Numbered from the stretch's first letter, positions 288 to 1,507 are shown. The stretch is 64,000 nt of DNA from a virus (IMGVR_UViG_3300045988_077100:2602-66601); one strand, 5' to 3'. Notes: generated by a model from the sequence alone, not told the origin. A program made the numbers and translations.

Positions 288-364
288 TGGCAGGGACGGT
301 TGGGAATCGAACCCACCCAAGCGGTTTTGGAGACCGCCTCGCCAGCCTTGGAACATTCGCCCCT
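288..364 (-). tRNA. tRNA-Trp(CCA)-like gene with non-canonical D and T arms
   Basis: Minus-strand read AGGGGCG-(20 nt)-GCGGT-CTCCAAA-ACCGC-TTG-GGTGGG-TTCGATT-CCCAAC-CGTCCCT-G-CCA. 7-bp acceptor (one G:U), clean anticodon arm, encoded CCA. No 4-bp D stem can be drawn; T-stem strands are 6 nt with a G-A mismatch. Confidence 0.55.
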
Positions 365-370
365 ATGTTT

Positions 371-392
371 GTCTGTCTTTCCAGACTGTCAC
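371..392 (-). promoter_or_regulatory. Conserved TGAC-hairpin motif (GAAAGA loop), copy 1 of 3, 6 nt upstream of the Trp-like gene
   Basis: Minus-strand GTGACA-GTCTG-GAAAGA-CAGAC. Same architecture at 895-916 and 1153-1174. Confidence 0.4.
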
Positions 393-504
393 CGCTGCGT
401 GTCGGCTGCCTGCGGTTGGCCCCCATAGGTACACGTTTCTGTTGCCCTGCCGCGCCCATCTCCGGGCAACCCGTTTGTGATTGTACTTCTCATGGCGCTG
501 GATG

Positions 505-579
505 TGGTGCAGACGGCTGGATTTGAACCTGCATCGTTCCCCACTTCGGGGGTGCTCTAACCTACTGAGCTACGTCTGC
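505..579 (-). tRNA. tRNA-like gene, possibly a pseudo-tRNA (6-nt anticodon loop CGAAGU, GAA core)
   Basis: GCAGACG-TA-GCTC-AGTAGGTTA-GAGC-A-CCCC-CGAAGT-GGGG-AACGAT-GCAGG-TTCAAAT-CCAGC-CGTCTGC-A-CCA. Perfect acceptor, D arm and T loop. Only a 4-bp anticodon stem, a 6-nt loop without U33, and an A-A mismatch in the T stem. Confidence 0.5.
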
Positions 580-770
580 AAATGTCCCCTCTGGGACACT
601 TCGTCAGGGAACCCTGGACGAGAGGTGCGAGGGGTCCTATGCCCAACCGGAATTGCACCGGGGCGTCAAGGGCAAGTACCAGTTGCCGGAGACGAGCTGC
701 TTTTGCGGGCCGCAGCTTATATATTTATGGAGCACTGGCAGAGACGCATCACCCAAAATGCTCCCCGCCA

Positions 771-886
771 TGGTGCAGATGGTGAGGATTTGCACCTCAC
801 ATAGCCTAACAGTGTCGGCCTCCACCGCTTTGCTGGGCGGCACCCGAACTGTCATTTGTAGCGTCTACCTATTCCGCTACATCTGC
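771..886 (-). ncRNA. 116-nt tRNA-shaped RNA with a ~17-bp extended hairpin in place of the anticodon arm
   Basis: GCAGATG-TA-GCG-GAATAGGTAGA-CGC (tRNA-Leu-like D arm), then TGACAGT-TCGG-G-TGCCGC-CCAGCAAA-GCGGTG-GAG-GCCGA-C-ACTGTTA, then GTGAGG-TGCAAAT-CCTCAC-CATCTGC-A-CCA. 7-bp acceptor, 6-bp T stem, 8-nt apical loop. Confidence 0.5.
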
Positions 887-894
887 ATATAGAT

Positions 895-916
895 GCCGGA
901 CTTTCCCGGCGGTCAT
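895..916 (-). promoter_or_regulatory. Conserved TGAC-hairpin motif (GAAAGT loop), copy 2 of 3, 8 nt upstream of the 771-886 RNA
   Basis: Minus-strand ATGACC-GCCGG-GAAAGT-CCGGC. Confidence 0.4.
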
Positions 917-1043
917 GTCGCTCAGATTCTCCGAGAATACCGTCCCGATAGCGGCTGTATCAACCCGCCGACTCCACTGCCAGATATGGAGGTTTCATTC
1001 CCACTACGGTTTATAGAGTAACCACCTCTTATGTGGGCGGGCA

Positions 1044-1112
1044 TGGTGCAGACGGCCGGAGAGGTCCCCGGCTACCGGGTGGAAAGGACAAAAGCACCGG
1101 TTGGACATCTGC
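1044..1112 (-). ncRNA. 69-nt minimal tRNA-like RNA (acceptor helix, two hairpins, ACCA end)
   Basis: GCAGATG-TCCA-ACCGG-(18-nt loop)-CCGGT-A-GCCGG-GGACCTCT-CCGGC-CGTCTGC-A-CCA. Acceptor pairs 7/7 (one G:U). No D arm, no T-loop consensus. Confidence 0.4.
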
Positions 1113-1152
1113 ATAGACCCGCCTTGTTTGCGCCATGGCGGGTGATGTGGCG

Positions 1153-1174
1153 GCCCGACTTTCCGGGCTGTCAT
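1153..1174 (-). promoter_or_regulatory. Conserved TGAC-hairpin motif (GAAAGT loop), copy 3 of 3, 40 nt upstream of the 1044-1112 RNA
   Basis: Minus-strand ATGACA-GCCCG-GAAAGT-CGGGC. Confidence 0.4.
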
Positions 1175-1224
1175 ACACATTCAGGAGGCTTTGCAATCCA
1201 TGCAGGGCGCTGCTCGTGCACCCT

Positions 1225-1298
1225 TGGAGCGGATAATGGGAATCGAACCCACCTTCGCGGCTTGGGAAGCCGCCGTTCTACCGATGAACTATATCCGC
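1225..1298 (-). tRNA. tRNA-Gly (anticodon CCC)
   Basis: GCGGATA-TA-GTTC-ATCGGTA-GAAC-G-GCGGC-TTCCCAA-GCCGC-GAAG-GTGGG-TTCGATT-CCCAT-TATCCGC-T-CCA. Textbook 74-nt cloverleaf. Confidence 0.9.
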
Positions 1299-1406
1299 AT
1301 ATGCCCTGCCGGGGTCGCACCGGGGCACCGCTCCGAGAACGGCGAGCGTGTACTTACGGGCCACGCTTGGAAGGTAGGAGAATACTACGTGCGGCATCCG
1401 CGCCGC

Positions 1407-1507
1407 TGGTGAGCGAAACCGGAGTTGAACCGGGAGAACAGAGGACAAGCCAAAAACCCTGTTCGCGCAGGGTGTGAGTCTGCGCCGTGTCCGCACGATT
1501 TTCGCCC
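1407..1507 (-). tRNA. 101-nt non-canonical tRNA: 8-bp acceptor, 4-bp T stem, long variable arm (allo-tRNA- or tRNA-Sec-like)
   Basis: GGGCGAAA-AT-CGTG-CGGA-CACG-GCGCAG-ACTCACACC-CTGCGC-GAACAGGG-(12-nt loop)-CCTCTGTTC-T-CCGG-TTCAACT-CCGG-TTTCGCTC-A-CCA. 4-nt D loop and 6-bp anticodon stem. Anticodon ambiguous: CAC if the A-C pair closes the loop, otherwise a 9-nt loop containing UCA. Confidence 0.55.

Follow-up and report, generated by a model that had tools for sequence, protein, structure and literature searches.

The transfer RNA (tRNA) genes of phages are usually regarded either as helpers for codon usage or as replacements for tRNAs cut by nucleases, and the question raised by the locus described here is whether this view can account for a cluster in which most of the units depart from the structure of a decoding tRNA. 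The locus lies in a viral contig (IMGVR_UViG_3300045988_077100:2602-66601), and the 64-kb stretch that was analysed is referred to below as the window. Between positions 288 and 1507, on the minus strand, an earlier note made from the sequence had described six tRNA-like units, which are numbered here U1 to U6 in their own 5' to 3' order, from 1407-1507 down to 288-364. The results lead us to favour, tentatively and with somewhat less than even confidence, a reading in which this region is the main part of a same-strand island of phage non-coding RNAs (ncRNAs) of about 2.3 kb that would be matured by the tRNA machinery, and in which modules lacking an anticodon may act as handles or carriers.

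Detection and folding of the six units

The window was searched with ARAGORN and with the covariance models of Rfam, the latter both at gathering and at permissive thresholds, and sequences were folded to their minimum free energy (MFE), the z-scores of the folds being computed against dinucleotide shuffles. ARAGORN returned three tRNA-type genes in the whole 64 kb, all of them on the minus strand and all within the array: a Trp(cca) at 288-364 (U6), a unit at 505-579 (U5) reported as 'tRNA-??? (aa)', with a two-base 'anticodon', and a Gly(ccc) at 1225-1298 (U2). At the gathering score of the Rfam tRNA model (RF00005, 29 bits; that of the tRNA-Sec model, RF01852, is 47 bits), two of the six units passed, U2 (1228-1298, 64.8 bits) and U5 (508-579, 48.2 bits). 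U1 (1407-1507), U3 (1044-1112) and U4 (771-886) received no call from either program, permissive thresholds included. The covariance models therefore do not score all six as ordinary tRNAs; three of the units are missed by standard tools, which wrongly label others as Phe, Ile, Gly or Cys tRNAs.

When the sequence was read and folded, a terminal helix of 7-8 bp preceding an NCCA end was found in each of the six units, at the positions given by the earlier note, and five of them were more stable than their shuffles (z from -2.6 to -3.7), the exception being the Trp-like U6 (z = 0.16). A strict shape scan of both strands, in which a candidate had to combine NCCA and a perfect acceptor helix with a T-loop motif on a paired T stem, gave four matches in the 64-kb window, every one of them inside the array, compared with an average of 0.04 in shuffled sequences. 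The scan and the folds together indicate that the coordinates and most of the structural details proposed earlier were correct. As had been claimed, the tRNA-Gly(CCC) U2 is the sole textbook cloverleaf, recognised both by Rfam and by ARAGORN. It is also the only one of the six with a 7-nt anticodon loop containing U33 on a 5-bp stem; at this place a 5-nt loop is found in U5, a 13-nt loop in U3, a 47-nt hairpin in U4 and a 9-nt loop in U1.

The description of the cluster as dominated by structurally deviant tRNA-like RNAs is thus borne out, as at least three of them (U3, U4 and U5) are not ordinary decoders. Therefore, neither codon bias nor the replacement of nuclease-cut tRNAs can explain these three. 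The earlier note had extended this conclusion to the cluster as a whole, which goes too far, since U1 and U6 may be charged.

Other identities were sought for the region. ROOL, GOLLD, Y RNA, tmRNA, C4 and hammerhead models of Rfam had no match in positions 1-2200 of the window at E ≤ 10, nor in two related loci, L021 at E ≤ 1 and L124 at E ≤ 5, and ARAGORN called no tmRNA in the window. A match to 'abiF RNA' at 1117-1142 (E = 3.9) and a match to Plastid-ycf2 on the antisense of the tRNAs were discarded as noise. A protein-coding reading of the array was also rejected, on the weak contrast between GC3 and GC2 in its open reading frames and on the finding that relatives differ by indels of 1-2 nt and of whole modules.

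Units without an ordinary anticodon loop

U3, U4 and U5 have in common the acceptor helix GCAGAYG/CRTCTGC, a discriminator A and CCA, and their interiors are unrelated to each other. As modelled, none of the three is able to present an anticodon in the normal way.

The 69-nt U3 (1044-1112, minus strand; fold z = -2.6) is a Y-shaped three-way junction, in which a 7-bp acceptor (GCAGAUG/CGUCUGC, followed by ACCA) is joined by two hairpins. One of them has a pyrimidine-rich loop of 13-15 nt in which GUCCUUUCC is invariant, and the other, of 7 bp and with the tetraloop ACCU, stacks directly on the acceptor; there is no D arm, T loop or anticodon loop. Among 11 variants of this unit, acceptor pair 6-67 is U-G, U-A or C-G and a C to U change in a hairpin still pairs, and in one variant the hairpin is broken.

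U4 (771-886, minus strand; fold z = -3.7) is an RNA of 116 nt derived from tRNA-Leu. Its acceptor is GCAGAUG/CAUCUGC, followed by ACCA, its D arm (GCGGAAUAGGUAGACGC) is of Leu type and the loop UGCAAAU closes its 6-bp T stem; a 47-nt imperfect hairpin stands where the anticodon and variable arms belong. Homologues with 78% identity in a different phage group retain this architecture, with two compensatory pairs in the T stem (GUGAGG/CCUCAC to GCGGGG/CCCCGC), and the tip loop of the hairpin measures 8 nt in one group and 10 nt in the other. Of the two units said earlier to be devoid of an anticodon arm, U3 has indeed no anticodon loop, but U4 carries this long hairpin in its place.

U5 (505-579, minus strand, 75 nt) is a member of what we call the GCAGAYG scaffold family. 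Its acceptor, D arm (G18G19), T arm and ACCA are canonical, and its anticodon arm is cut down to a 15-nt mini-arm, CCCC(C)-GAAGU-(G)GGGA. In the Rfam alignment, a 5-nt insert replaces the 7-nt anticodon loop and one pair of the T stem is mismatched. A 6-nt loop lacking U33 had been proposed for this unit; the absence of U33 was confirmed, but the loop has 5 nt if the closing C-G pairs and 6-7 nt otherwise.

A search with the pattern of the scaffold body reached at least 119 viral contigs, and the survey of the family was based on 97 distinct sequences and 164 fetched loci. The T stem covaries among the 97 sequences: pair 50-64 is CG in 69 of them and UA in 21, and pair 51-63 is UA in 51, AU in 27 and GC in 6, being mismatched in 13%. 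On this one body the central domain varies, with versions of 13, 14, 15, 17 and 47 nt. The commonest class, of 72-73 nt (98 of 173 locus occurrences), carries a 14-nt arm, ACC-GCRCCNGGA-GGU, with an invariant GGAGG that is Shine-Dalgarno-like (L010 at 10620-10691, L039, L052, L063 and about 100 other loci). In the 72-nt class a single loop base varies, and a possible 9-nt loop would accordingly be centred on CCA, CCG or CCC. Further classes have 74-75 nt (with GAAAU or GAAGU loops), GUAGA, or 81-83 nt. In a class of 77 nt (L109, L044, L015 and others), the arm is of normal size, with the loop C[A/C][A/C]AU[A/G]A, an AAU or CAU anticodon and no U33; ARAGORN labels it tRNA-Ile(aat). Either the scaffold may descend from such a tRNA-Ile/Ile2-like form, or the class may be a variant whose anticodon loop has changed. 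The 72-nt form had no counterpart in GenBank phage records except for one unannotated metagenomic record.

The acceptor stem common to U3, U4 and U5 was considered as a decisive identity signal and rejected as such, because other phages have the same stem on what look like tRNAs for Asn, Lys and Arg; therefore, it may reflect ancestry and not a shared partner. The genes neighbouring 168 scaffold units are ordinary phage genes (helix-turn-helix (HTH) regulator, terminase, ParB-methylase, HU), and no consistently linked enzyme gene was found within 3.5 kb in the 164 scaffold loci. Another phage group has, in 63 loci, a same-strand XRE-type HTH gene (about 76 aa) some 145 nt upstream of the scaffold unit, for example in L102 at 9154-9384, and in about 20 loci terminase genes are found 0.4-1.7 kb downstream of the unit.

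Structured RNAs between and beyond the units

The sequences that separate the units proved to be conserved structured modules as well. For the one at 580-770 (minus strand), RNAalifold applied to 8 sequences of 80-100% identity gave 48 pairs, 2 of them compensatory, and for the one between U5 and U6 (365-504, minus strand) it gave 26 pairs, 4 of them compensatory, arranged in two hairpins (7 sequences, 79-100% identity). Both modules recur directly after scaffold units in other phages, the former with 80-84% identity and the latter with 79-80%, and within the clade the spacers are conserved as strongly as the units. Inside module 580-770, a scan also detected a degenerate seventh unit, of a form resembling the 8/4 geometry of U1 (8-bp acceptor, 4-bp T stem), at 635-735 on the minus strand (GUGCUCCA...CCGG UGCAAUU CCGG UUGGGCAU).

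Right after U6 begins a larger structured RNA of about 310-365 nt, whose 5' four-fifths occupy positions 1-287 of the window (minus strand) and which ends at a tRNA-Gln(UUG) located about 70 nt outside it; full copies are found in L021 (8436-8794) and L124 (1631-1955). RNAalifold on 29 distinct copies, taken from two divergent groups of gut phages, gave 89 pairs with 20 of them compensatory; in one long-range helix, 8-9 double changes follow each other in a row. The core of this RNA lies at a fixed distance of 127-135 nt from an upstream tRNA whose identity varies (Trp, Gly, Met, Cys, Ile or Thr), and the RNA terminates at a downstream tRNA, Gln or Gly. No Rfam match was obtained for it, either with the window or with the full-length copies of the two phage groups. 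As the spacers and the 3' flank of the array are conserved structured RNAs, the most economical reading of the locus moves to an ncRNA island that would be punctuated by RNase P.

Units that may be charged

U2 (1225-1298, minus strand), the canonical tRNA-Gly(CCC) with its CCA encoded, shows 97-100% conservation in all the related loci. This tRNA and the tRNA-Gln(UUG) outside the window are genuine decoders of the island.

U6 (288-364, minus strand), an atypical tRNA-Trp(CCA) of 77 nt, falls below the Rfam tRNA threshold, and its best Rfam model is tRNA-Sec (36.8 bits at 293-363, under the 47-bit cut-off), with CCA and not UCA as anticodon. Its anticodon loop, CU-CCA-AA, is canonical (7 nt, U33) and stands on a 6-bp stem, the acceptor is AGGGGCG with an A1-U72 pair and the 3' end is G73-CCA. 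Three features are odd: position 8 is A and not U, the D region (AAUGUUCCAAGGCUGGCGA) is non-canonical, and the T stem counts 6 layers, one of them a G-A mismatch. The earlier note had denied this unit a D stem; the usual Watson-Crick D stem is in fact missing, but two alternatives are available, a CCA/UGG stem of 3 bp capped by an AGGC tetraloop and a 4-bp stem rich in G-U pairs. When the acceptor, anticodon and T helices were enforced, the cloverleaf reached -27.5 kcal/mol compared with -27.6 kcal/mol for the MFE fold, and the 3-bp D stem with its AGGC tetraloop appeared.

The exact motif formed by the D region and the anticodon arm of U6 was found in 84 viral contigs of widely differing sizes and gene contexts, and the unit is 100% identical across phage groups with differing flanks and genes. 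Compensatory changes convert G2-C71 into C2-G71, a G-C pair of the T stem into A-U and the G-U pair at the base of the anticodon stem into U-G. A pseudo-tRNA of Bacillus phage Mater, annotated as 'tRNA-Pseudo, codon UGG', has a D region identical to that of U6 and 83% identity overall. An unannotated Trp(CCA)-like sequence with a similar D region was also seen at about 575-665 of L232 (Vibrio phage KIT04, T5-like), upstream of a tRNA-Ile and a tRNA-Met; it fits neither D-stem register of U6 cleanly.

Judged by these sequence features, U6 is a selected and probably chargeable atypical tRNA-Trp, and probably a genuine decoder. A second, less likely possibility comes from the tRNA-Other of Bacillus cereus, an RNA with a Trp anticodon that is linked to a mobile island, has no function in translation and affects expression of trpS1 (PMC3399842). 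U6 is similar in kind to this RNA as it is described, in that a Trp(CCA) anticodon sits on a body rejected by standard tRNA models, and by this analogy it could be a non-decoding regulator. It differs in keeping the acceptor and anticodon features of a chargeable tRNA-Trp, so that it may simply decode UGG.

U1 (1407-1507, minus strand; fold z = -3.1) is a 101-nt RNA that folds with the 8/4 acceptor/T-stem geometry already assigned to one unit of the array. Besides the 8-bp acceptor and the 4-bp T stem, it has a 4-bp D stem capped by a tetraloop, a 6-bp anticodon stem and an 8-bp variable arm; the anticodon loop has 9 nt (ACUCACACC) with CAC as its middle triplet, the T loop is UUCAACU and the 3' end is A73-CCA. 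It was found in 35 viral contigs, restricted to this phage clade, in the form of 13 distinct variants that group in two alleles and each fold alone into the five-helix architecture. The 8-bp acceptor and 4-bp T stem appeared in the MFE fold of 12 of the 13, the acceptor helix of the L024 variant being of 6 bp; the variable arm ranges from 8 to 9 bp, the D stem from 4 to 5 bp and the D loop from 3 to 4 nt. In the alignment, 94.9% of the cells are paired, compared with 55% at most when the partners are slid, and this rises to 99% for the acceptor cells and 100% for those of the T stem. Two pairs of the anticodon stem are compensatory (G-C to A-U and A-U to G-C), and the two alleles have CAC and AAU, respectively, at the centre of the loop, preceded by CU.

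Transfer RNAs of 8/4 type have been described in phages (Mukai et al., 2017; PMC5389517), and U1 has the structure by which allo-tRNAs are defined, with its 12-bp branch split 8/4, its long variable arm, its tRNA-Sec-like D stem capped by a tetraloop and its 6-bp anticodon stem. It differs from them in the predicted 9-nt loop and in its discriminator, which is A73 in all 13 variants and mostly G73 or U73, as for serine identity, in allo-tRNAs. The copy in L021 gives a weak match to the tRNA-Sec model (28 bits, below the 47-bit cut-off), with CAC and not UCA as anticodon. On its architecture, U1 is of a recognisable non-canonical kind, the 8/4 allo-tRNA type, and it may be chargeable. While the two alleles of U1 are about 21% apart, the flanking spacers are at least 95% identical (window compared with L008-L011, L018, L019, L024 and L025), which suggests a cassette-like replacement by recombination and not a gradual divergence.

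The 145 positions preceding U1 (1508-1652, minus strand) form a leader that is 90-100% conserved in about 50 related loci, with a perfect TATAAT box at about 1621-1626 and two strong hairpins. It is possibly the start of the island transcript.

Genomic context and modularity of the array

The window encodes integrases, a portal, a tape-measure protein, a primase, RecT/YqaJ, a single-stranded DNA-binding protein (SSB), an antirepressor and DNA methylases, as in a temperate siphovirus-like phage. Annotation of about 30 of its proteins with PHROG and Pfam revealed no synthetase, nucleotidyltransferase, ligase, reverse transcriptase or tRNA-dependent transferase among them. The array lies downstream of two genes without assigned function, on the same strand, and in full-length relatives it runs past what is the left edge of the window to the tRNA-Gln(UUG), which is directly followed by an HU-like gene. 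When the rest of the window was searched for k-mers complementary to the loops of U1, U3, U4 and U5, the counts were not above those of shuffled loops and no antisense targets were found.

A neighbouring protein of 238 aa, used as query, led to 26 related viral contigs. In a single scan of bacterial genomes, the sole return was a 71-kb contig binned in a metagenome-assembled genome of an 'uncultured Clostridia'; this contig is probably the phage itself, and the host is probably in the Clostridia. Among the relatives, units are present, absent or replaced by another allele within flanks that are 90-100% identical. A Trp-like unit follows 24 of 115 scaffold units and the large RNA follows 16 of 63 Trp-like units; thus, the modules assort independently and a fixed module order was ruled out. 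At a distance from the array, an int-alpA RNA was matched by Rfam at 34728-34790 on the plus strand (40.9 bits, gathering score 35.8), just past the portal gene and distant from both integrases.

A processed ncRNA island as the preferred reading

RNase P, 3'-end maturation and the CCA enzyme rely on a small set of determinants, namely the acceptor helix, the elbow, NCCA and the T arm, for which a stacked helix can stand in among the present units. As the parts kept in the units are these processing determinants, the domain that has been exchanged is that of the anticodon, the modules alternate with structured RNAs and no phage enzyme was found for the task, a host-matured ncRNA island is the reading that we prefer.

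According to this model, the island would be transcribed as one precursor. Each tRNA-shaped module keeps its coaxial acceptor/T-type helix, the elbow where there is one, and an encoded NCCA. RNase P would therefore cleave before the first position of every module, and stable tRNA-like particles would be the mature products. Those without an anticodon would act as handles for processing and stability, a form of 'punctuation' by which the interleaved structured RNAs would be freed and protected, and they may also act as tRNA-shaped carriers showing a class-specific hairpin where the anticodon arm would be, CCCC-GAAGU-GGGG in the present case and the 14-nt GGAGG arm in the commonest relatives. 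What the data show are the structures with their conservation and covariation, the distribution of the families and the lack of an ordinary anticodon loop; from the shape of the modules we infer co-transcription and cleavage by RNase P, and the model further supposes maturation by the CCA enzyme, any aminoacylation and a role outside translation.

Several points weigh against this reading. A consensus scan gave no full sigma-70 site in the leader, and no convincing promoter or terminator was found bracketing the island. Encoded CCA is an anti-determinant for RNase Z, so a clean 3' release of the modules is uncertain. Punctuation also leaves unexplained why ordinary tRNAs would not serve, and pure punctuation does not explain the conservation of the hairpins, in which GGAGG never varies (about 55 distinct sequences, from the classes of 71-74 nt). 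In addition, the presence of degenerate copies and the gain and loss of units fit partial decay: the unit at 635-735 has neither CCA nor D arm, the U5 of the window carries an A-A mismatch at T-stem pair 51-63, the relatives of U4 end in ACCA, GCCA, ACUA or GCUA, with CUA replacing CCA in some of them, and arrays gain or lose units among phages whose neighbouring proteins share 84-100% identity. Finally, part of the conservation, and a large part, reflects shared ancestry, because the relatives are for the most part phages of close kinship drawn from a single metagenome collection.

Alternative explanations

A possible but clearly less probable explanation is that the anticodon-less RNAs, and perhaps the Trp-like and 8/4 units with them, bind a host factor that reads the tRNA body or NCCA, and in this way reprogram or protect translation. 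Candidate partners are a toxin or defence enzyme acting at the acceptor end, a synthetase, a T-box leader, and the ribosome or an RNA-binding protein, reached through a hairpin such as that with GGAGG. The idea stays alive because the hairpins that replace the anticodon arm are conserved and class-specific, notably the invariant GGAGG, on a body that is kept together with its NCCA, although GGAGG is partly base-paired in the predicted hairpin. The non-homologous interiors of U3, U4 and U5 are likewise carried by one acceptor stem and discriminator, but in other phages this stem is also found on tRNAs for Asn, Lys and Arg that look ordinary. U4 retains the tRNA-Leu-type D arm and A73, which are used by the leucyl-tRNA synthetase (LeuRS) independently of the anticodon; U6 keeps Trp identity elements and is of a kind with tRNA-Other (PMC3399842), and an association with toxin-antitoxin loci is described for allo-tRNAs as well as for polycistrons of irregular tRNAs (PMC5389517). 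Nevertheless, no partner was identified, no linked enzyme gene lies within 3.5 kb in the 164 loci and decoys that act stoichiometrically would be weak against catalytic enzymes.

We regard as rather doubtful the more specific proposal that the scaffold RNAs are a new class of phage effectors, which would act in trans on host translation or on a tRNA-directed defence or toxin, or would dock on the large RNA. Each would be a tRNA body whose anticodon arm has given way to a small hairpin on display, with the invariant GGAGG in the commonest class and with GAAGU, GUAGA or a long hairpin elsewhere. If this were true, the tRNA maturation machinery would make the scaffold RNAs abundant and stable, and in the docking variant they would form an RNA-only assembly with the neighbouring large RNA.

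It is about equally unlikely, in our view, that the locus is an ordinary phage tRNA cluster most of whose duplicates are pseudogenes at varied stages of erosion, their conservation being due to kinship of the contigs. Partial decay stays alive because of the mismatches, the CCA losses and the rapid gain and loss of units among phages with nearly the same neighbouring protein: pair 51-63 is mismatched in scaffold sequences that include the U5 of the window, CCA is missing from the unit at 635-735 and lost in some relatives of U4, one U3 variant has its hairpin broken, and the spacers are as conserved as the units within the clade. Against it stand the compensatory double changes in U1, U4, U6 and the scaffold T stem, the same five-helix fold of U1 alleles that are 21% apart between flanks 95% identical, and the full identity of U6 across phage groups whose flanks and genes are different. 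Moreover, the anticodon-less class of 72-73 nt is the commonest form of its family, and erosion would not repeatedly swap a 17-nt arm for tidy short hairpins. The homologous loci thus show units conserved with compensatory changes, and not just the random decay, or the error of hand folding, by which the earlier note could have been overturned.

A further explanation, which we consider improbable, holds that every unit is an unusual working tRNA, with a loop of 5, 6, 8 or 9 nt serving for frameshifting, doublet or quadruplet decoding or missense insertion. Allo-tRNAs of 8/4 and 9/3 type do function in the translation of Escherichia coli (PMC5389517), the anticodon loop of U6 is a perfect one for Trp, the 9-nt loop of U1 presents CU followed by a central CAC or AAU, and the variable base of the 72-nt scaffold class would place CCA, CCG or CCC in the middle of its possible 9-nt loop. 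However, U3 has neither T loop nor D arm and a loop of 13-15 nt, U5 has a 5-nt loop without U33, and the 47-nt hairpin of U4 is irregular, with a tip of 8 or 10 nt depending on the phage group. The 'anticodon' regions are not comparable between classes, and missense decoding of Val or Ile codons by U1 would harm the proteins of the phage itself.

A role at the DNA level, in which the units would be recombination or attachment sites (attP copies of host tRNA genes or inverted-repeat cassettes) and not RNA genes, was rejected as very improbable: the units are bounded by an 8-bp perfect inverted repeat (TGCAGAYG...CRTCTGCA), the arrays are modular and the phage has two integrases, but these are 12 kb and 60 kb away, conservation extends to complete 5' halves, D arms, T loops and NCCA, none of which an attP site needs, the covariation keeps RNA pairing including strand-specific G-U pairs that are meaningless in duplex DNA, and all the units are oriented as the genuine tRNAs.

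Comparison with known systems

The ingredients of the preferred reading, a processed ncRNA island, have precedents in non-canonical tRNAs, pseudo-tRNAs, tRNA-like processing signals and large RNAs found in tRNA islands. The C4 RNA of phages P1 and P7 and the CI RNA of P4 are immunity RNAs of tRNA-like form, with an acceptor-like helix, which are released by RNase P and do not decode. They are functional analogues of the modules proposed here, which differ in giving no match to the Rfam C4 model, in that no phage antisense targets were found for their hairpin loops and in belonging to other host lineages. The tRNA cluster of T4 also contains stable RNAs co-transcribed with the tRNAs, 'species 1 and 2', for which, to our knowledge, there is still no known function.

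The t-elements of plant mitochondria are tRNA-like structures with an acceptor and a T arm (GGTTCRANYCC) that direct cleavage by RNase P and RNase Z and so set the ends of neighbouring RNAs (PMC1920247). U3, U4 and U5 are like them in that they combine a tRNA-like acceptor/T-arm structure with the lack of a working anticodon arm and lie between other RNAs. The two systems differ in kingdom and enzymes, and whereas t-elements flank mRNAs, with processing demonstrated, the present units flank ncRNAs, have CCA encoded and would be processed according to their structure.

As a whole, the array is similar to the polycistrons of irregular tRNA-like sequences, of 7/5 and 8/4 type, described by Mukai et al. 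(2017; PMC5389517), whose function is uncertain and possibly non-translational; several natural allo-tRNAs were inactive in that study. Those polycistrons belong to soil Acidobacteria and lie beside toxin-antitoxin genes, whereas the array described here belongs to gut phages, probably of Clostridia, and anticodon-less members such as U3, U4 and U5 are absent from that report (PMC5389517). As for the large RNA at 1-287, its tRNA-island setting is also that of ROOL and GOLLD, two large structured RNAs without an assigned function that occur in the tRNA islands of phages and prophages, sometimes with tRNAs embedded in them (PMC12286853, PMC5737381). It matches neither of their Rfam models in sequence or structure and has about half the size of ROOL.

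Significance for phage tRNA islands

Compared with the usual view of phage tRNA genes, these data indicate that much of a conserved phage 'tRNA island' cannot decode and yet stays under structural selection. The module families are more general than the single locus suggested, as two of them are spread over many contigs of gut phages, the Trp-like one in 84 and the anticodon-less scaffold in at least 119. The closest GenBank relative of U6 had been annotated solely as a pseudo-tRNA, and GenBank phage records contain no match to the scaffold family beyond the one unannotated metagenomic record. The locus offers an entry point to the roles of tRNA-like RNAs outside translation and to the relation of RNAs of the ROOL/GOLLD type to the tRNAs that adjoin them, and also to the maturation of tRNAs by the host as what may be a general production line for the ncRNAs of phages.

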